A program made the position numbers and the translations under genes. A model generated the notes under the pieces. It had not been told where the DNA came from, made no database searches, and saw nothing but the letters and a program-made list of their open reading frames with translations. A DNA stretch of 64,000 nucleotides from Protoeuglena noctilucae (taxonomy: Eukaryota), in contig OY253677.1 in NCBI GenBank assembly GCA_958009085.1, positions 496,001 through 560,000 of the forward strand. The letters run 5' to 3'. How positions within the stretch are numbered: the first letter of the stretch is position 1; every line of letters begins with the position of its first letter. This document shows positions 9,994 through 52,703 of this stretch, one piece after another.

Positions 9994-10753
9994 TCATGCG
10001 GAGTCGGCGGTGCCCTGATGCTGGGCCAATGAGTCCGCGGCTTGGCCGAGGAGGGCGTTACCGACAGCGAGCACGCGCGTGGCCTTTTGCGCCGCTTCCA
10101 GGGAGGCCTGTGCCTCCCCCGCCGCGTGCCTGTGGAGAACAGCGGACTTGCATCAAGCCGAAATGCTCGAGGAGGGAAGCGGGGCGGAAGCAGCGCCGCG
10201 GGCCGTGCCTGAGCTCCTCCCGCAGCGCTGCCACTTTTTCCACGAGGGTCTCCAGGGACTCGTGCCGCGCCTCCAACGTGTCATCGTCCACAGGAATGGC
10301 GGCGACCAGCGACCTGCGCGGCAAGCATCGCAAATCGCGCCAATGCCTCACAGGAAGGCGTCTGTGCGGTAATGCTGCGGCCGCGGGGCGTGGATGGGGC
10401 GGATGCCGCTAACCTGAGCTTCTTGAGCTGCTCCATGATCTGCGACGCGACTTCCCGGGGATCTGCGGCCCAAGAGCAGCGAGTTGTGGCTCTATCCGTG
10501 ACACATAGAGTCGGGTGCCTCCCCAGCGCCCCGCTGCACCCATCAACCCGCCAGCAAGCTCGCCTGGTAGCTCTACAGGCTCGCTGTCCTTGCCGACTGC
10601 AGTGCGGGCAACCACCTGCTCCCCGCGCAGCGAAGCCGGCGCGCTGAAGCCCTGGAAGAGGTTGTAGCCATGGAGGAACGACTTCAGGACCTCATCCACG
10701 CTCAGCTGGATCTCAGACAGCACATCGCGCCTATTGCCCGCGCATTCCGCCAT
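9994..10753 (-). CDS. MED21: Mediator complex subunit 21-like
   Basis: Spliced DVLSEIQLSVDEV..FQGFSAPASL, ASQIMEQLKKLRSLVAAIP and LLGQAADSL resemble plant MED21 (DIISQLQEQVN.., FDALVAALP, LFGQAADNCL) as recalled. The model needs two GC donors (10593, 10208). Confidence 0.7.
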
Positions 10754-11068
10754 CGAGGGGTCCCCCCTCGCGCTCCGTTCGCGTGCTCTTCAACCCTCGC
10801 GCAAAGTGCACAAAAGAGAATCGCTCAGGGATCTTACCGAACGAGCAAGAGATAAACGGGGTGCTTGTTGTTCCACCCAGGGTCGAAGTGGACGGGAAAC
10901 GTTGCACCGGCGCGCCAGCCTGACCCACCCGAACTGCTCGCCCTCAGACGTGGGAGCAGCAGACTCCCGACGTCCTCAGGCGCCGGTCCCAGAGCTTTCG
11001 AGGGCGCATTCGTTACAGCAGCTCGGTGGAGAAGTGGCGGCAGGGCACGTGGAGCTGCAGGGGCGTGC

Positions 11069-11651
11069 CTACATGATGACGCAGGCGCACCCCTGCGACC
11101 GTTCTCCACTGGCCAGCTCCCCCTTCTTCGGCTCTTCCTTGGGTTTGGCCGCGCTCGCCTGCACGCATGACAGCAACCGGTCGGTACATGAAAGGGTAGG
11201 TCGGGCCGCACACGATGGGTCGGGCGACAGCACAAAAGCCACCGTGCAAACCCTGCCCACCTTGGCCTCTTGCGGGCGAAGCTGGACGTGCAGAGTTAGG
11301 ACCATGCCATCCTCCATCTCCTGGGCCCCCCCTGGCCACATCAAGGCCAGCGTCGCCTCTGGCTTCATCTCCCCCCCGTTCATGATGAGCCGGACCTGTC
11401 CCTCGTTCGTGGACCGTTGCTGCGAGAGCGCCAGGTGCGCGAGGTCGCGCGCTGCCTCAGCTGCCTCAGGCAGGGCGGGTGCCAGCGCCGGCTCAGCCCT
11501 TGCGGCCCCTCACCGCGGCCAGGGGGCCGTCACGCGGCCACTCGGCCACCAGCCGGCTCCGACATTGCGCCCCGGTCCATGAGGGATCCGCATCAAAGGG
11601 CCCGACGTCCCCCTGGGGATGACGGAACCGCACGCTGATCTTGGGGGGCAT
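11069..11651 (-). CDS. MUB: Membrane-anchored ubiquitin-fold protein (MUB/UBL3)
   Basis: MPPKISVRFRHPQGDVGPF..LVAEWP, VRLIMNGGEM, TLHVQLRP and C-terminal CaaX GCACVIM*. TGTAA lies downstream on the minus strand (11013-11017). Confidence 0.88.
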
Positions 11652-11662
11652 CCCTCCCGTCG

Positions 11663-12211
11663 TCACTCGGGCGCGCCCCGGCCGCGCTCGTCCTGCGCGG
11701 GCAGCGAAAAGAGACACCCGCCGTGCGTCGAGACCATAGCGCACCCTCAGGGGCCAAGCACGCGGCGGGAGGAGGCTGCATGACGTGGCATGACTCACCG
11801 AGCCCCCCTTGTCCCTCGTGCCGTAGAACAACGAGCCCCCGATGATGAGCAGAGCGACCGCTTGGAGTGACTTGGCGTTCTGGTACCACTTCTGGCTCGT
11901 CGCCTGCCGCCAAAGGTCCGCTGTGGCGCAGAAGGGCGGGGTCGCCTTGCGCGCGTCGGGATCGAGCACATGCGTGCCCAACAAGCAGCCGCGGATTGGA
12001 TTATGGCTGCAAATGCTACGCCGGAGACCGAAGGCAGCCCGCGCCGCGCCCCAAACGTGTCGGGGGCGTGTGCATTTGCTCTGCACCAGTGGTCCCCCCG
12101 CGCGGGAGCTCGTCTCGCTGTCCAGTGCTCCAGAGTGCACGGCAGGTGACGCAGCTCACCTATGTTATCGTGGCCCGGGGTCCTGCTTAAACCGCTTGGC
12201 TTCCCACGCAT
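11663..12211 (-). CDS. 67-aa single-TM microprotein immediately upstream of MUB
   Basis: Exons 12211-12160, 11920-11799 and 11692-11663 join in frame with GTGAG/CAG sites: MRGKPSGLSRTPGHDNIADLWRQATSQKWYQNAKSLQAVALLIIGGSLFYGTRDKGGSDERGRGAPE*. Confidence 0.7.
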
Positions 12212-12560
12212 GCGCACCTGCACAGACAGGTCCAGCACAGGTCCCAGGCAAGCACGGATGCTGCAGCGACGTCGAACGCGTGACGTTATCTCAGCCGCGA
12301 GAACGGGCGGTCTCGGCACGGCTCAAGGGCGCTTGCGGTGAGCCACAGAGGGTTCTCTGTGGACGCAGCCGTGCAGGAGGACGAGACGCTTCCACAATTT
12401 CTTCTGTCGAGGATTTCGCGGAGCGGGGCCCTCAAGCGCGCTCCGCGGCCCCCTCGTTCTCTCTGGCATCGGGGTATCCCCCGTTTGGCCAGCATAATGG
12501 CCCCCAAAGGCCCCAGGTCTCATTGAGAGCGTGTTCGACTCGCCGATATCACCCGCAGCG

Positions 12561-13693
12561 ATGATCTCGCTGCCCTCCGCCAGCGGATTGGCCGGGGCCC
12601 GGCATGTCAACTTGAGGCCGGCTCGGGCAGCTGTGGCAGGGCCGTTGAGGCCCCTGACCCGCCCCCTGCGCATGGTCCGCTCCGATGCCGCTGCATCGCT
12701 GCCCGCGGACTCCAGCGCGGGCGTGGTGACGACTCTGGACGCGACCGGGCATGCGCTGAGCATCGGAATCGCTGCGTCCATGGCCGCGAAGTTCTATAAT
12801 GGCTCGCTCTTCTCCTGGCACCCGACTCTCATGGCACTGGGCTTTGTAGCGTTCATGGCTATCGGGTAAGAGCGCACTCTACACGGGGGATTCGTGATGC
12901 AGAACCTTGCGCTTATCTCATGTCACAATCCGTCTGCGTCTCTTCTCCGTCGCGATATCGTTCGTTCTGATCCCCGTCCTCAGGATTATGCGGGCGATCG
13001 ACTTCCGCAAGGTCGGCGGGCAGGCCCGTGTCGCGGCGATCTTCATCCATGGTTTCCTCCAAACCGCGGCGATGGCTTGCATATCGCTCGGCTTCGCCGC
13101 CATCTTCCAGGTCCGGCAGTCCTCCTAGGCTCTGCTCCGAGCGGCCTTGTCTCTTGTGCCTCTCGCTGCACCTGACGTAAGCGTCGGAGGTGTCATGTAA
13201 GTGCATACCCAGCCCTGCAAACGATTCTAATCCACCTTGCCGCAGAACAAAATCATCAACGGCAAAGCGCACTTCGTGAGCCAGCACGGAAAGCTGGGCC
13301 TGGCAGCGACGGTGCTCGCGGCCCTCGTGGCCATCGGGGGGGCGTTCGCTTTTAAGAAATTCAAACTGATTGATATGTTCCCCACGGCGATGCAGCCGGT
13401 CATCAAGGAGCGCCACAGGTGCGTGTTTGCCGGCGAGCTGCCGTCCCTCATCCCTCGCACGCCCTTGGCGCGCCCCCTCGACAGCCAACGTGTGACACGT
13501 CCCCACCTGTTGCAGGCAGCTGGGCACAGTCACCCTGCTCCTGGCCATCGTGGTGACGTTCATGGGCATCAGCTACCCCCACATGGCCCGGGGGGCGTTC
13601 ACCCCTGCTTGGCAGGCCGGGCTCGTGGGACTGGCGGGCGTGATCCTGGGCAAGAGCTACGTCCAGCGGATCCAGCGCCCGGCCAAGAAGTGA
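12561..13693 (+). CDS. Cytochrome b561 family protein (CYB561D-like)
   Basis: Heme-ligand His motifs LFSWHPTLM, FIHGFLQ, HFVSQHGKLG and KERHR|QLG; multiple TM helices; three introns. Start uncertain. Confidence 0.85.
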
Positions 13694-13767
13694 CGCGTGG
13701 TGTTTAAGCAGCGGAGAGTGATCCCACACCCATAGCGACAGCGTTGAAACACAGAGACTCTGACGTA

Positions 13768-44195: not shown

Positions 44196-46564
44196 TCACC
44201 CACTGATCAAGGAGCAGTGCCCCCGTGTGATGGCCCACAACGTCGACTCGAGGTCCCCCGCGCCCCACCGCGGCCCGCCTGTCTCCAGCCAGCCGGGGGA
44301 CCTGAAGTACTCCTGCAGCGGCCCCCGCCCCTCTACAGTTGGGAACCGGCGCTCCTTGGACGTCATGCTCCGCGGAAGCCACGCGCACGTCCACTCCCGG
44401 TGGTTGCAGTGCATGAAGTGGAGCTCCCCGTCAATGCCGGACTGGGCCATGGCCACGTGCGTGACCCCGTGGCCGGACCCGGGCACGCCGCCCCACCGCA
44501 CCGGGTAGGGCACCATGTGGTAGTCACCCCCGGCCAGCGTGATGCCCCAGGCGAAGGGCTCCTTGTCGCCGACGCCCAGGGAGTGACACAGCATCCACTC
44601 GAGCGCGCGGTTGGGGTACGCCATGAGGAAGAGCGCCGTGAAGAGGCCCGGGAGGTGCCGGGCACGGTCCACGGCCAGCTGCCCCGACTCGTGGGCCTGC
44701 CGTGGGGCGGCGAACCCCGCCTGGGCCAGCAGGGCCTCGTAGTCCACCACGCCTGCCAGCGTCTCCGTGGTTTGGGGAGCAACCCCGAGGCGCGGGTTGC
44801 TGCCCTCGCCAGGCACAGCCGCGGGCGTCGTGAGGCCGGCCATCTCGCGCGCCCGCGCAGCGATGGGGAAGACCTGGGGGTCGACGGAGAGCCCCCCAAA
44901 GTCGGGCCACATGACGGCGCCGTACTGCTGGAAGTACGCGCTGTCCATGATGGGCCCCGGGTCCCGGAGCACGATGTTGTCGGCGTCGACCAGGAAGACC
45001 TCCCGGAAGGGCGCCAGCGTGACGGCCACAACCTTGAGGGCGTAGAGGGAGAGGTCGTAGAGGACCTTGCGGGAGAGCATGGCGGACCCGCCGCCGTCCG
45101 TGGCGCCCAGGGCCGGGAGGAGGCGGTCGATGACGACCACGGCCGTGTTGAGGTTCTGACGCAAGTAGGCCTCGACGGTGGGGGAGGGGCACTCGAAGGA
45201 GTAGCACCAGAGCTGGGCCGGCTCGGCGAAGCCCCCCTGTCGCAGCGACCACAGCGCCAGCATGGCCTGGGGCAGGACGTGCCCCCCGCCCACCACCACG
45301 GCGCCCCGGGGAGCCGACGCGCCGAGCAGGGCCGAGGTGTCGATCTCGCCCGCCAGCCGCAGGAAGTGCCCCAGCTGCGCCGCCAGCAGCTGTCGCTCCT
45401 CCGGGCTGTACGTGAGGCCTTCTCGCACGTAGTCCTCCCGGGGGTACACGCGCCTGCCTAAGGGCGCCGCCACCCACGCCGTCGCCTCTCCCCGACCACC
45501 CCGCGTCGGCGAATCGCTCGCTGGGCCCCGGGGCAGGGCCGAGAGGTACAGGGCCTTGGCCATGGCCACGTTGAGGTCCACCCACGCGGTCTCTGCGGCC
45601 TCCTCCCATGTCAACGACACCCCATTTGGAGGCTTCTGGTCCTGGGAACAGGGGCGCATGCCCGGTGAGGGAGGGGGGAGGCCCAAGCAGCACTGCTCCA
45701 CACATTGCGATGAGGTGCATGGGCCTGGCATGGCTCGCCTGGTAGGTCAGCTCGCGGGGATGGAAGGGGCGGCCGTTCTCGAGCATCACCGCCGACGGCT
45801 CGCGAGTGAAGCTCATCGACGTCATGAAGAGGCCTCCTGCAATCCACTGCCGCGCCCGAGCCCTGCAAGCATGTGATGCAATGCCGAAGTGCAACCTCGC
45901 GACAGGCAGGAGACGAGCCATGAGTGCCGAGCGCCGGACATCTTCATACCTGGCGATCGCATTCACGTTCTTGAGCGCAGATGACGTCGCGACGCCGAGG
46001 AGGACGACGGCAAGGACCACGGCGGCATGCCAAGGCCTCACCCAGGCCTTGAGCCGTTGTGCGGCCCTGCGGATGCGAATATTGCCCAAGGATCATGTGC
46101 GCTGAAGCCTACATGCGAGATGCACTCCGCGTTTGGCATGCGCGCCCCGCGAAGTTGAATGTCGCGGACAAAAGGCGAGCAGATGCGCAGGTGAAGCATT
46201 CAAATGCATCTGCCGATCGGTGCGGTTTCGCGCAGGACTGCGTGATGGAGAGAGTCTATCGTGACAAGATAGGTCTGGAAAGCTCGAGTTATGTGCCGCC
46301 GCTGCGGATTGAGCCCACCAAATCTTCGCATTGCGTGGAATGTACAACGTATGCGCAATCCAGCCGCGAATCTGGGAGACAACTCGCTCCTATTGAAGTT
46401 AATCACGTACACCAACGGGAGGGCACGCAACGGTGCGTCGCGTGCATGGCATCCTAACATGCGGCGCGGGTACGAACAGATGCTGTGCCCCCTCACCTCA
46501 AACGCCGCTGCAGCTGATCGCACAATCCGACCGCCGCTTCTTCATCCCTGTCCACAAGTCCCAT
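44196..46564 (-). CDS. GT71 (MNN1/MNN2-like) alpha-mannosyltransferase, type II membrane protein, paralog A
   Basis: GAVVVGGG, LKVVAVTLAPFREVFLVDADN, YGAVMWPDF, HESGQLAVD, GDKEPF; N-terminal TM HAAVVLAVVLLGV. Exon 1 inferred at 46564-46497. Confidence 0.85.
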
Positions 46565-46873: not shown

Positions 46874-49800
46874 TCAGGGCCCGCCTCCGCGCGCCAGCGC
46901 TGCCCTGGGCGCAGGCTCCCGACACAACACCACGACGTCCCGCATGCTCCCATGACTGGAGCTGGTGAGCGCGTGCAGGAACCGCGCGCACTCGCGGTAC
47001 CCGAGCGCGGCCGTGAACCCTGCTCCGTCGTGGCGGTGGATCCTCACCAGTGTCGTGTCGAAGAGCGCAACGTGGGACGGCAGCGAGGACGTCGCGTTCA
47101 GCGCGCGGAGGAAGCGCTGCGGAGCGAAACGAAGAGAGAAAGGGTCAGCTCTTGACGAGCCGAGCAGGGGCGCGTCAACCGTCAGCAGCCGGCCTGCTCT
47201 CGGCGTCTGCCACCAGACCTCTGCCCCAGCCACTGCTCTAGCTCACTGTCCCAAGTCTCTACCCCAGTCAGTCCTCAGCCACCATCCCTCTACCCCCAAT
47301 GCTCAACCACCATGCCTCTACCCCAATCCTCTCCCCCAACCCTCACGCACCCCCCGGTCCGACATGACCACCTCCTCCTCCGTCCCCCTCCGCGGCACCC
47401 CGCCCGTGTCGATGGCCCCCTTCTGGAAGGGCCTGCTCGACTCCTGCTTGGGTATCCGCGTGCCCACCGCCTCCCACGTGCCCCACGCCAGCGGTCGATG
47501 GGGCGGGTACGTGAAGGTCCCCTCGGGGCGGTAGCCGGGCGGGGAGCAGTCGGGGAAGCCAAGCGACACGGACGCTGCGGGAAGTGACGTACGGGCATAG
47601 CAGAACTGATTATTCGAACAGAAGACTTCATCAGCCTGTTGCTCAGATTGGTACCGTCATGCTACCATCAGCCCCGCTGTGCTCCACTCAGCCTTGCTAC
47701 GGTGTTGCCTGCTGCCATCAGCCCTGTCACCACTACCCTGCCACAATCTCATCCCCGTCCCCTCACCTTGGTGGATGTAGGCGTGGTACTGGGTGGAGTG
47801 GCACGGCATGAGGAAGTACACCGACCGGACGCGCCCGGCCGCGGCCTCTGACGCCAGAAACGTCACCGCTGACACCGCGCCCCTCTGGTGCACCAGGCTG
47901 AAGTAAGACCACATGGCGCACTGGACGACAAGCACGGCGGCCACGGCGCCGCGGAGGAGTTTGCGGACCGTGGGGGGGCGGCGGTGGAAAGCTGATGCCG
48001 ACGCGACCCCCACGTCCGGTCCCCACATCTGCCGCAGCCCCGCGCCGATGACCGGCATGATGACCTGGACTGGGCTGATGAGCAGCCGGAACTCCTTGTG
48101 CGGGCTGATGCTGAGGCCTGCCAGGTTAACCAGGTACAGCACGTACAGGCCCCTTGAGGTGCCCTCGGGAGTGAGCCCCATCGCCAGTCCCTTGCAGGCC
48201 GGGTCCGCGTGCGGGGGCTCGTGCATGGGGACGGATGCCGTGGAGGTGGATGCCGGCACGCCCAGGGCCTCGAGGGCGCGCGGAAGGAAGAAGGCGGCGG
48301 TGAGGGGCACTGCGGGGGCGCGGGGTGGGGGGCGGGATGGGGTGAGGGTGTATGCTACGCACGTGGCATGTGGGTTACACTGTTATTTCTTTAATAGCAT
48401 ACGGCATACAGCAGCGCCCATTGAACAGGCGGTGACCGATAGACGCGCCGCAGACACACTTGCCCTTGTTCCCAGCTCTTGTTCCCAGGGCTGTCACATG
48501 TGACTGGTACAATTGACAACGCATGGCTCACCGAGGAAGGAGGTGAGGGCGAGTGCGGTGCCCTCGAGGAAGTACCACACGGCGTGGTGGGATCCGTAAT
48601 ACGAGCTGTCCCCCGACAGCGCGTCGAACTGGACGAACGTGATGAGGGGGAATACCCACGTGCCGTAGCAGGCGCGGTCGACGAGGGCGGAGAGGGCCAG
48701 GGCGGCGGCACCCGCGGGGAGGGCGAATCGCACCCCGTACCACAGCGTGCGTGACGCGTCGACCCAGAGCATGGCCACCGTGAAGGCCAGCCATGGGATG
48801 ACCGCGGTGGGGCGGATGACGACGGAGAGGGCCGCGAGGAAGAGGGCCTGGGAACAGAGGGCGGGGTTAGGGCAGCGTGGGACTGCGTATGAAGGGTTAG
48901 CTGGGTAGCAACGTGGGACTGCATGTGAAGGGGTTAGCTGGGTGCGCTGGCGTCCGCATCGGCACCCGCACAACCATGCAGCTGCAGGTGCCTGGCCATA
49001 ACTATGAGTTCTATCCAAACAAAAAGCCGGAAGCGTGGCTCTTACCAGGAACACCCTCTGCGGCGACTCGTGGTCGTGGGTCGCGCGTTTGGTCGCCTTG
49101 GCAGAGCAGGGGGCGCGACCAGGCTGAAGAGGCATGCGAGGGGGAAGTCCCACAGGCACAGGGACGCCATGAGGAGTAGGGACTCAAGGCAGTTGGAATA
49201 GGAACGCACGAGACAGAAGCCGTTGAACCAGTACGACAGCTGCGCCAGGGCTGCCCAGGGGACGTACTCTTTGCCCATCCAGTGCTGCGGTGGGGGGGTA
49301 TGGGGGGTGGAACAGGGGTTGGCACAGGCATTAGGTGTGGCACAGGGATGGCGCAGGGTAGCACAAGTGGTAGGGGTGGCACAGGTGGCACACACGGCAA
49401 AACGGAAGTGACACAAGCAGCGGCACGGGCGGAGGCCTGAACGACACATAACACAGGTGTGCCGAGAGAACAGGTGAGAGCAATGATATATGTATTCTCT
49501 ACCATCTCGCGTCATCACCTGCGTCAGGTGGAGGATGCAGAAGTCGACCAGTGCCGCGACGGTGCCGTGCATGAGCCGCGGTGTGACACGGACCACTGCA
49601 GGAGTGTCCAGGCCCAGGAACTTGACCACCTCCAGCGGCGCCGCCAAGAAGAGGGGATGCCAGTAGGACCTGCGGGCGGGGCGGGAGGCCGGGTGGGGGG
49701 GCATGCGGACGGTGCGAGTGGCGCATGGGCTGGCAGCAGTCCTGGTGCGATTGCTAGTGGGCGAGACGCGGACCTGAGTTGCGCGATCCATTCCCACGTG

Positions 49801-50049
49801 AAATGTCCGTACCCAAAGACCTGCGCGAGGACGCGGGGACGTGTGGTGAGTCCGGGCGGGGGCGACAGGCCGCAGGGCAGCGCGTTCGCTCGTCACCAGC
49901 CGGTGGGCGACCTCTGGGCCCTGCCAGAACTCGTCCGGAGCGAAAGACGTGCTTATGACGAGCGCTTGTACGGATCGGAACGCGATCAGACCCCACAGAA
50001 CCCGGGCCGGGTGCCGGGAGAGCCAGCCATACGCGCTGGCCGGGAACAT
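46874..50049 (-). CDS. PIGB: GPI mannosyltransferase 3 (PIG-B/Gpi10, GT22)
   Basis: TSFAPDEFWQGPEVAHRL|VFGYGHFTWEW..LR|SYWHP, RSYSNCLE, IRPT, YYGSHH..WYF, HKEFR, FLMPCHST, FPDCSP. Confidence 0.92.
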
Positions 50050-50470
50050 GCTCGGCCCTGCGCCGTGCGCCGGGCTGCCCTCGCCGACGGCTAGGGAGTG
50101 CGGAGACGAGGCGTCTGTGCCCGGGAGTCGACGCTCTCGACACTCCAGTGATCGGGCATCCGGCGCACAATGGCTCGCCCCTGCGACCGCGGGCGGCGGC
50201 AGGCCCAGCGGGTAATCCAGGACGCGTGTTCCTGCTAGCGTGGTGATCGTGGGAAACTCCGATCCTGCAGGCGCTTGAAGACCAGCCCGCAAAAAGCGCC
50301 TGCAGGATTAGCCAGAAACAAATCATTTTAGGGGGCCGCGGTGCTACGCCTCAGCCATTACTTGCACGTCTCTGTATTCCGTCGTGCACGTCAGCAACCC
50401 GCCTGGTTCGGATCGGCCTCTCAAGCCGCGGGCCTTCCGTGGCCGCACTCGGGCATGCGCCCTGCTCGAG

Positions 50471-52703
50471 ATGGCGTGGCGCAAGGCCGCGAACGGCTAT
50501 GCCAAGGTCGATGACGATGTCAGGCGAGCCTGGCGTCGCACGGCACGGTTGCCCGGCACCGCGACGCATTGCAGGAGCTGATGGTGGATACGTCTGCATC
50601 TGCGGCTGAATCCATCCCGAGCCACCTTCAGAGATCGCCGCCCGCAGCCGCAAGCATCGGGCGCGGGGCCGGGTCCGGCCGCGGTGGCTGCTCACCTGCG
50701 GCGCCCTCGCAGCGGCCGTCGTCGTCATCCTTGCGGTCGTGTGGTGGCTCCTGGGGCGCGTCACAAGGTGCTGCGATTGCGCGAAATCACGATTCACCTG
50801 CATGGATCCCGCATTTCCCGCTCCCTTACCAGGATCGCGAGCGGGGACCCCCATCGCCGGCCTGCAGGTCCCGCTTCAAGGCATGGCTCTTCCAGGGCTA
50901 CCACGTGCATCACATGAGCTTTTCGAGTGAGCCAACTATGGTTTACACGCTGGACGGGAGGCGCTACAATCCGCCCGCGCCCGAGGGGGAGCCCGTGAGT
51001 GCGCGTGGGGCGCAGCGCAGACACAATCCGCGCGATTGGGAGGGCCTTCCGCGATGACAAACCACCATCGATTCGTATCTCTGCAGAGTATCGCAGCGTG
51101 GAAGATGGCGACGGCGCACGTCTGGGCGGCGCTGAACCTGAACGTGGCGCGGGCGTTCTATGCATCAACCGGGCGCAAGGTGCCAGACGGGGCCACGTTC
51201 CGCGGCAATCCTGCGCTGCGGCCCGTCGGCAGTTCCTCGAGCGGGCGCGGAGCCACCGCGTGGCTGGCCGCGCCCCTGGGTCGGCGGGCGGCCGACGGCG
51301 ACGACTACGTGCGACGCGGGGAGCGTTACACGGCAGAGCAGCGGGCGACGCTGGCGGCGCAGGTCGGGGAGTTCGTGCGGCTGATGGGGGACGTGTCGGC
51401 GGAGCGCATGTGGGCGTGGCCGCCCGGGGAGGGCCGCGGGGTGGTGGTGGTGGGCGGGGGGCGGGTGCTGGCACAGTCGATGCTGGCCTTCTGGTCCCTG
51501 CGCATGGCGGGGTGCACGCTCCCCGGCGAGCTCTGGACGTTCGCGTTCGAGCGCCCGCCCCCGCGCATCGAGCGTTTCTTGGCGCAGAGCCTTGGCGTGC
51601 GGGTGGTGGTGGTCGAGGACGTGCTGCCCCAGCTGCGCGGCACCGACGGCGGCGGTCCCGCGGTGCTGTCGGACAGGATCTTCCGGGATCTGTCGTTCTT
51701 CACCCTCAAGGTCCTCGCAATCTCGATGAGTTCTTTCCGAGAAGTGCTGATGGTCGACGCCGACAACATCGTGATGCGGGACCCCACCTTCCTCTTCGAC
51801 GATCCGCTCTACCAGCGCTACGGCGCCGTGCTCTGGCCCGACTACTTCGGCCTCATGGTCGACCCGCAGCTGATCGACGTGGCCGACGCCGCGTGGGGCC
51901 ACGCGACGCATGCGAAGTGGACACCGTGGCCCCGGGCGCGTGCTCCCAGCCAGGGCAACCCCAGGATGGATCGGACGGCGGCGGGGGCGGAGGCGTGGGT
52001 GGGGGACATCGACTATGACGCGCTGCTGAAGGAAGCGCAGTTCCCGGCGCCACGGTGGACGCACGAGTCGGGGCAGGTGAGGAGGGGTTGGGGTGAGGAG
52101 TAATGGGATGCCCAGTGCTACGCTTATCATCGCTTGTCCACTTGTCTCTTCTCATCATCTCTTACCATCTCTAATCACCGCTCATCACCCCCTGTCCCAC
52201 TCATGCCTCTCCCGCAGATGCTCATCGACCGCACCCGTCACCTCCCCGGCCTGTGGCTGGCCCTCTTCTTCATGGCCTACCCCAACCGCACCTTCGAGTA
52301 CCTCTTCTCCAACGCCATCGGCATGGGAGACAAGGAGGCCTTCGCCTGGGGCATCACGCTGGCGGGAGGCGACTACCACCTCGCCCCGCACCTCCCGCAC
52401 CACGCGGGGGGTCCCAGGGACGGCAAGGCTTTCGAGAGCATGGGGACGGCGCAGTTCGCGCCCGACGGGATGCTCCTGTTCATGCACGCGAACCGCAGGG
52501 ACTGGCGGTGCGACCGCGTTCCCAAGCGGCTGTCTGTTGCGGACTACCGATACAAGGAGTTGCTGGGTGTGGGTCCCCTGGCCGACTACTTGCGGTCGGA
52601 AGTTTGGCAGGCCACCGGGGGGCCGCACTGGGGCGCGGGGGACTTTGAGGCGACGGTGTGGGTGCTCACGCGGGGCTTCTGCGCCGCCATCGCGTCTGCG
52701 TGA
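50471..52703 (+). CDS. GT71 alpha-mannosyltransferase, paralog B
   Basis: RGVVVVGGG, LKVLAISMSSFREVLMVDADN, YGAVLWPDY, HESGQ|MLIDR, GDKEAF; TM LAAAVVVILAVVWWLL. Colinear with paralog A. Confidence 0.85.

Follow-up and report, generated by a model that had tools for sequence, protein, structure and literature searches.

Two open reading frames (ORFs) follow one another on the minus strand of a 64,000-nucleotide (nt) stretch of Protoeuglena noctilucae DNA (contig OY253677.1 of assembly GCA_958009085.1, positions 496,001 to 560,000), and both of them are found on the same spliced RNA contigs. This whole stretch is called here the window, and all coordinates are counted from its first letter. The upstream frame, ORF1, is composed of exons 12211–12160, 11920–11799 and 11692–11663, which give after splicing 204 nt, that is 67 codons and TGA; both its introns are of the GT..AG type (239 and 106 nt), and its product carries the hydrophobic stretch AVALLIIGGSLFYG. 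The TGA occupies positions 11665–11663 and is followed, after a spacer of 11 nt (11662–11652), by the ATG (11651) of the second frame, 11651–11514 / 11419–11261 / 11158–11069, encoding a MUB protein of 128 amino acids (aa) with C-terminal CVIM. The same exons, stop and start codons and the 11-nt gap had been proposed from the sequence alone (the original prediction), and every one of these coordinates turned out to be correct. The features of the locus are given below; X2, X4 and X5 are RNA runs, and GC3 denotes G+C content in the third codon position.

12212–12387, minus strand: 5' leader part of exon 1, without ATG; its extent is the reach of RNA contigs (X2 record 3, 12218–12387; X4 record 8; X5 record 14)
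12160–12217, minus strand: alternative segment of exon 1, 58 nt, kept in form A (donor 12160/GTGAGC) and spliced out in form B (donor 12218/GTGCGC); the ORF1 ATG (12211–12209) lies inside it
12160–12211, minus strand: ORF1 coding part of exon 1, 17 codons and one base, start context gtgcgcATGcg
11921–12159, minus strand: intron 1, 239 nt, GT..AG; 297 nt with donor 12218
11799–11920, minus strand: ORF1 exon 2, 40 whole codons, predicted hydrophobic helix; maximum of coding-type codon-position bias in the locus
11693–11798, minus strand: intron 2, 106 nt, GT..AG, flat in composition; joint present in all three RNA runs and not in DNA
11514–11692, minus strand: shared internal exon with the end of ORF1 (11692–11663), the spacer, the MUB ATG and the first MUB coding exon (11651–11514), the product of which matches PF13881
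11420–11513, minus strand: intron 3, 94 nt; joint in all three RNA runs
11261–11419, minus strand: MUB coding exon 2, 53 codons, with GC3 periodicity
11159–11260, minus strand: intron 4, 102 nt; joint in all three RNA runs
11069–11158, minus strand: coding part of the last MUB exon, ending with the CaaX box CVIM and then TAG
11013–11017, minus strand: TGTAA, 52 nt past the MUB stop, candidate poly(A) signal

Splicing of the locus and its two mRNA forms

The exon structure, both splice forms and the co-occurrence of the two frames on spliced contigs were registered in environmental RNA. Six RNA libraries, all of them marine metatranscriptomes from two studies, contain about half of the sampled words of the 1501-base stretch 10900–12400, and four further runs, which have one organism label and an unrecorded library type, contain all of them. 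Contigs of RNA runs X2 and X4 (study P1) and X5 (study P2) were compared over 10600–12700 with those of X7, one of these four runs, which served as a DNA control. Joints 11158/11261, 11419/11514 and 11692/11799 were present in all three RNA runs and hence in both studies, while joint 11920/12160 was found in two of them, X2 and X4. The DNA run is contiguous over the locus and has none of the RNA joints. All of the latter have CT..AC borders on the plus strand, which means GT..AG on the minus strand. Both ORF1 junctions expected from the sequence (12160/11920 and 11799/11692) are used, therefore, in the RNA sampled by metatranscriptome contigs, and both MUB introns are spliced as well. Moreover, single RNA contigs, namely record 1 of X2 (1636 nt) and record 6 of X4 (764 nt), extend from 11922 over both later ORF1 exons and all three MUB exons. 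Since exon 11692–11514 is spliced on both sides within one contig, it is an internal exon in which ORF1 ends and MUB begins, exactly as had been supposed, and at the level of contigs the two non-overlapping frames belong to one spliced mRNA.

Stored protein records tell the same. P0001 (67 aa, a JGI record) is identical letter for letter to the product of spliced ORF1 and P0020 (128 aa) to that of spliced MUB; both are ORF calls from apparently spliced, RNA-derived contigs. P0019 (71 aa) represents the ORF1 frame extended four codons upstream, so that it reads across the 12218 donor site, and P0018 and P0024 are unspliced fragments from DNA contigs. One more record, P0022 (ENA, an unspliced ORF), differs from the window in a single residue within translated intron 4 (approximately 11159–11260) and is identical in its exon parts, which hints at strain variation confined to this intron.

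The original prediction described a bicistronic locus and missed a second form of its mRNA. Joint 11920/12218, detected in X2 and X4 and absent from the DNA run X7, skips 297 nt using the donor CAG/GTGCGC, and in both RNA runs the contigs part cleanly into two branches at the exon 1 contig 12218–12387, which both forms share. Form B, produced in this way, loses nucleotides 12217–12160 together with the ORF1 ATG, and because the rest of the leader is ATG-free, the MUB ATG becomes the first one. Contig depth for joints 11920/12160 and 11920/12218 was 15.2 and 7.2 in X2, 7.03 and 3.5 in X4, so that by this poor measure the ORF1-bearing form is favoured roughly two to one. The locus is not exclusively bicistronic, and the existence of form B places it in the “incompletely polycistronic” class named by Gallaher et al. 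(PMC7896298), with the monocistronic form originating from the choice of splice site and not from a second promoter. It represents a compact natural example of how alternative use of 5' splice sites decides between bicistronic and monocistronic messages.

The 3' end is less informative. It had been noted that TGTAA appears only after MUB, and indeed the element at 11013–11017 is the sole minus-strand copy in 12400–10700. The motif is not enriched in the window, however (33 copies versus 25 expected, the number 33 being reached in 8 of 100 shuffles), and therefore its absence inside the ORFs says little. RNA contigs also continue past it by at least 150 nt, to 10857 in X4, 10870 in X5 and beyond 10600 in X2. 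For these two reasons TGTAA was rejected as evidence. The contig ends at 10857 and 10870 were likewise rejected as a 3' end of the transcript, as they coincide with a branch of DNA contigs. This branch, located at 10830–10859 in records 15, 16 and 17 of X7 (record 17 having a lower depth), with RNA contigs of two studies stopping nearby, suggests a sequence variant or a repeat.

Coding-type composition of ORF1 and identity of the downstream protein

The middle exon of ORF1 has a nucleotide composition characteristic of genes. G+C content in the three codon positions is 0.57/0.54/0.84 for ORF1 and 0.69/0.50/0.82 for MUB, and in the permutation test on the whole ORF1 a GC3 of at least 0.84 in any frame was reached with P = 5.5e-5. 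In exon 2 these values are 0.53/0.47/0.90, and its contrast of 0.40 falls into the top 1.5% of 12717 forty-codon frame-windows taken over the whole window. All 11 thirty-codon sub-windows of this exon have contrasts of 0.37–0.47, exceeding those of all 392 windows from introns and untranslated regions (UTRs) of the gene (maximum 0.30), and the borders of the exon are also those of the codon-position bias. Codon usage was estimated by a score trained on six ORF stretches with Pfam matches (1079 codons) located elsewhere in the window. ORF1 exon 2 scored +0.28 bits per codon compared with +0.115 for MUB, while wrong frames, introns and UTRs ranged from −0.64 to +0.07, wrong frames alone being at about −0.5 to −0.6. 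Thus, neither the splicing nor the codon-position bias is accidental, and the composition of exon 2 is of the coding type. Since a frame with an irrelevant peptide should not look so gene-like, we favour the assumption that the ORF1 product is translated and selected. An N-terminal extension of ORF1 hidden in the minor splice form was also considered and rejected; the in-frame leader has no ATG, and its codon score is −0.40.

A single-sequence AlphaFold2 (AF2) model of the ORF1 product predicts one helix formed by residues 17–51. Its hydrophobic core comprises about 16 residues and has charged residues on the flanks. On the Kyte–Doolittle scale the best 15-residue mean is 1.93 and the best 19-residue mean 1.32. 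In the original prediction this product was a membrane microprotein with one hydrophobic helix. The hydrophobic stretch is certainly there, while its fitness for spanning a membrane is marginal judging from the 19-residue mean, so that a membrane helix may be regarded as plausible and no better than borderline.

The downstream protein was named correctly. It matches the PF13881 profile (Rad60-SLD_2) with 43.6 bits at a cut-off of 23, residues 4–112 being aligned with profile positions 2–106 of 111, and finds among known structures Arabidopsis MUB3 (chain 4x57_B, E 3.9e-5) and At3g01050 (1se9_A, E 0.0043). Its C-terminus, C-V-I-M immediately before TAG, is a CaaX box. By these matches it combines the ubiquitin-fold domain with the CaaX end, as is typical of the MUB/UBL3 family. 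Proteins of this family are described as prenylated regulators of E2 activation, and binding of AtMUB3 to AtUBC8, as in structure 4x57, was reported by Lu et al. (2016, PMC4996978); by analogy, both E2 binding and prenylation may be expected for the protein encoded here. It is divergent: word searches with MUB returned only copies from the same organism. A metagenome scan for MUB relatives with flanking DNA gave 248 pattern matches, none of which was confirmed. The single-sequence AF2 model of MUB had a low confidence (predicted local distance difference test, pLDDT, 53.4) and was not used.

Proposed translation of MUB from the shared mRNA and competing explanations

With modest confidence we regard this locus as an incompletely bicistronic nuclear gene of the minus strand, in which ORF1 is probably translated and MUB is reached by leaky scanning. 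One promoter located upstream of approximately 12387 would give a five-exon pre-mRNA. In the major form, spliced from donor 12160, the first AUG (12211) would open ORF1, which spans three exons and ends 11 nt short of the AUG of MUB. Its product would probably be small, restricted to the lineage and built of one long helix with a short hydrophobic core, perhaps embedded in the membrane. MUB would be synthesized from the same mRNA by those ribosomes that scan past the apparently weak AUG of ORF1, which the lack of any further AUG in the 212 nt separating the two starts makes possible. Use of the weaker donor 12218, giving the minor form, would remove 58 nt with the ORF1 AUG and leave the AUG of MUB as the first one, and the choice between the two sites could set both the amount of MUB and whether the ORF1 product is made at all. 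What we infer in this scheme is that ORF1 is translated, that scanning is leaky, that the product resides in a membrane and that the splice choice has any regulatory use.

Leaky scanning fits the sequence features. Position +4 is C at both start codons, but position −3 is C in ORF1 and G in MUB; the generally preferred purine at −3 is thus present in MUB and absent in ORF1, although this general preference may not be the consensus of this host. Between the ORF1 and MUB starts, a distance of 212 nt, there is no ATG against 3.1 expected from the window frequency (Poisson P 0.043), and the entire 391-nt leader has one ATG instead of 5.8, whereas the coding sequence of MUB has 11 in 387 nt. ATG is depleted, therefore, upstream of the second frame. 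As for reinitiation, named in the original prediction next to leaky scanning, a spacer of 11 nt after an ORF of 67 codons is unfavourable for it. Searches for a structured element at the stop/start region were negative, as 73 nt around it fold no better than shuffled sequences (z +1.23), and Rfam gave no matches in the window. From these sequence properties leaky scanning would rank first among the ways to translate MUB. Two exon junctions (11514/11419 and 11261/11158) follow the ORF1 stop, and exposure of the ORF1-bearing mRNA to nonsense-mediated decay is therefore possible.

All this resembles what is known about bicistronic nuclear loci of green algae, for instance TOM22-SDHAF3 and OST4-FAM32A (Gallaher et al. 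2021, PMC7896298; Duenas et al., PMC11291117 / PMC11892635). In curated loci of two green algae the median lengths are 357 and 291 nt (ORF1), 183 and 40 nt (spacer) and 83 and 54 nt (leader); the start context of ORF1 is weak there, ATG is depleted before ORF2, and mutation tests support leaky scanning (PMC11291117). In the locus considered here there is likewise one spliced mRNA with two non-overlapping frames, a short ORF1 (204 nt) and a short spacer (11 nt), an ORF1 start context that looks weak by the general purine rule and no ATG between the starts. Small products with one hydrophobic helix, such as is predicted in our case, are said to be typical of the class, as exemplified by the ORF1 products TOM22 and OST4. 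In contrast to those loci, ORF1 has no known relative, and conservation of the pairing was not found in the searches made; besides, the locus is not exclusively bicistronic owing to the alternative 5' splice site that deletes the ORF1 start, and its leader of at least 176 nt is longer. The names MUB, UBL3 and Rad60 are absent both from the text of Gallaher et al. and from seven supplementary files each of two PNAS papers, a match by name which pairs given by identifier only would escape.

Two other systems are worth comparing. In the CDC26-TTM3 locus of plants and green algae ORF1 has about 65 codons, and its product CDC26 is reported to be deeply conserved and of known function (PMC11291117). 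The similarity consists in an ORF1 of almost the same codon count placed upstream of a longer ORF2 on one mRNA, and by analogy an interplay with nonsense-mediated decay may be expected here too, the ORF1 stop being upstream of exon junctions; the difference is that our ORF1 is an orphan. A cereal MUB gene (rice cDNA AK066145) has a conserved upstream ORF (uORF) of 12 nt located 58–231 nt before the main ORF, as listed by Tran et al. (2008, PMC2527020). It is also a MUB gene with an ORF in its leader, but in cereals this is a classical short uORF, whereas here 204 nt are distributed over three exons, have gene-like codon bias and end 11 nt before MUB. From these comparisons the locus looks like an ordinary case of a known type of two-gene mRNA with one twist, namely an alternative donor which removes the ATG of ORF1.

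Several observations weigh against this account. The first group concerns the absence of relatives. The ORF1 product matched no Pfam family at E up to 1; a word-indexed search among proteins of 33–105 aa returned only ORF1 itself; the best score in the Atlas search was 0.75, with nothing usable; and HMMER comparison with 1.84 billion representatives gave 16 matches at E up to 0.001, one of them being again ORF1 itself. The 15 others are longer proteins (154–2213 aa), most of which were scored over several summed stretches. We rejected these matches as chance ones; the four inspected (P0002, P0005, P0009, P0016) are tandem-repeat proteins with approximately 25–40% identity per repeat unit. The second group concerns ORF1 as such. 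Its 17 exon 1 codons have no codon bias (G+C content by position 0.47/0.59/0.65, codon score −0.53 bits per codon), and in DNA with 64% G+C open frames are common, so that 6382 of the 12717 forty-codon frame-windows lack a stop. The helix has a short hydrophobic core, with the 19-residue mean below the usual 1.6, and the model was built from a single sequence with mean pLDDT 69.7. Depletion of ATG between the starts is weak when taken alone (P 0.10 with mononucleotide shuffling), and the leader exceeds the published medians of 83 and 54 nt at least by the difference between them and 176 nt. Finally, both joints between exons 1 and 2 (11920/12160 and 11920/12218) come from one study and are absent in X5, which belongs to the second, and contigs, not being single molecules, drop rare forms and carry no information about whole molecules, 5' ends or true isoform ratios.

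Other negative results are of the same kind. The metagenome scan for loci similar to ORF1 gave 598 pattern matches, none of them confirmed, and tblastn revealed no paralogues within the window. Conserved linkage between ORF1 and MUB, raised in the original prediction, was not seen, as no relative of the 67-aa product was found; this absence is a weak argument, the search sets being without eukaryotic genomes. Similarly, the Pfam, word, HMMER and Atlas searches gave no sign that the peptide is kept across species, which is the feature of conserved-peptide uORFs.

There is a possibility, rather unlikely in our opinion, that ORF1 is a regulatory uORF. In this case the act of its translation would lower initiation at MUB and perhaps expose the mRNA to nonsense-mediated decay, the peptide itself would be functionless, and the alternative donor would provide an escape from this brake. 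The lack of a homologue in any search made, the unbiased codons of exon 1, the precise removal of the ORF1 ATG in the alternative form and the position of the ORF1 stop before junctions 11514/11419 and 11261/11158 all agree with such a role, and Arabidopsis uORFs of more than 50 codons are reported as targets of decay (PMC11291117). However, an irrelevant peptide should not be encoded by an exon with a GC3 of 0.90, with a codon score above that of MUB over 40 codons and with a bias that ends at the exon borders.

It is improbable that ORF1 is just a chance open frame in a spliced, G+C-rich leader, without meaningful translation, so that MUB would be monocistronic with a three-exon leader. The abundance of open frames in this DNA, the apparently weak start context and the lack of ORF1 relatives are compatible with such an explanation, but in the major form the ORF1 ATG is the first AUG after an ATG-free leader of at least 176 nt, at which some of the scanning ribosomes would initiate; the bias across codon positions, with its permutation P of 5.5e-5 and its place in the top 1.5% of frame-windows, also speaks against coincidence. 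A protein fused from the two frames, with a helix preceding MUB and arising from an unspliced intron 2, read-through or frameshifting, is very improbable: the genomic minus-strand frame 11493–12155 does cross intron 2 without a stop, has 220 codons and is the one to which the MUB ATG belongs, so that retention would join most of ORF1 to MUB, but this intron is retained in no RNA contig (though contigs drop rare forms), it is flat in composition and has negative codon scores, the spliced TGA and the MUB ATG are 14 nt apart from first base to first base and hence out of frame, and the 73 nt around them showed, as said, no folding that exceeds shuffles.

Returning to the incompletely bicistronic gene with a translated ORF1, one can imagine a further step, which we consider a long shot. 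The two 5' splice sites 58 nt apart might operate as a switch between a bicistronic mRNA, encoding an orphan membrane microprotein and MUB, and a MUB-only mRNA, with the microprotein being a lineage-specific membrane partner or regulator of prenylated MUB. If so, the proportion of two proteins acting together at the membrane would depend on splicing. If ORF1 is translated, it adds an unannotated, lineage-restricted small protein to eukaryotic two-gene mRNAs, that is a protein of the sort missed by standard gene callers. The locus opens no new kind of system, and it would be a convenient test case for splicing combined with leaky scanning.

Neighbouring genes and other observations in the window

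Record 1 of X2 runs from the 3' UTR of MUB past TGTAA, through 10600 and about 615 nt further along the minus strand, and covers the next minus-strand coding exon, with ATG at 10753 and strong GC3 periodicity over 10580–10759. This extension reflects read-through or, alternatively, closely packed genes whose transcripts overlap. Within the 3' UTR of MUB a 120-nt window at 10940–11059 has a three-base G+C periodicity with a contrast of 0.28 and no convincing ORF, which is probably a chance effect.

On the other side, in the region 12388–13707, a divergent gene of the plus strand starts about 170 nt upstream; its RNA contigs begin at 12556–12559, and one of its ORFs, 13231–13704, has a sub-threshold match to Cytochrom_B561 (17.5 bits at a cut-off of 23). 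RNA depth is zero over 12446–12516 in all three RNA runs, and the region 12388–12555, having no RNA cover, is probably a shared bidirectional promoter.

Farther away, three ORFs, 44199–45746 (minus strand), 50931–52100 (plus strand) and 49045–50307 (minus strand), deserve mention. Two of them match Mannosyl_trans3 (PF11051, E 6.8e-24 and 8e-21), and an Alg9-like glycosyltransferase ORF (PF03901) is situated within 8 kb of these two; together they may be a small cluster of mannosyltransferase genes.

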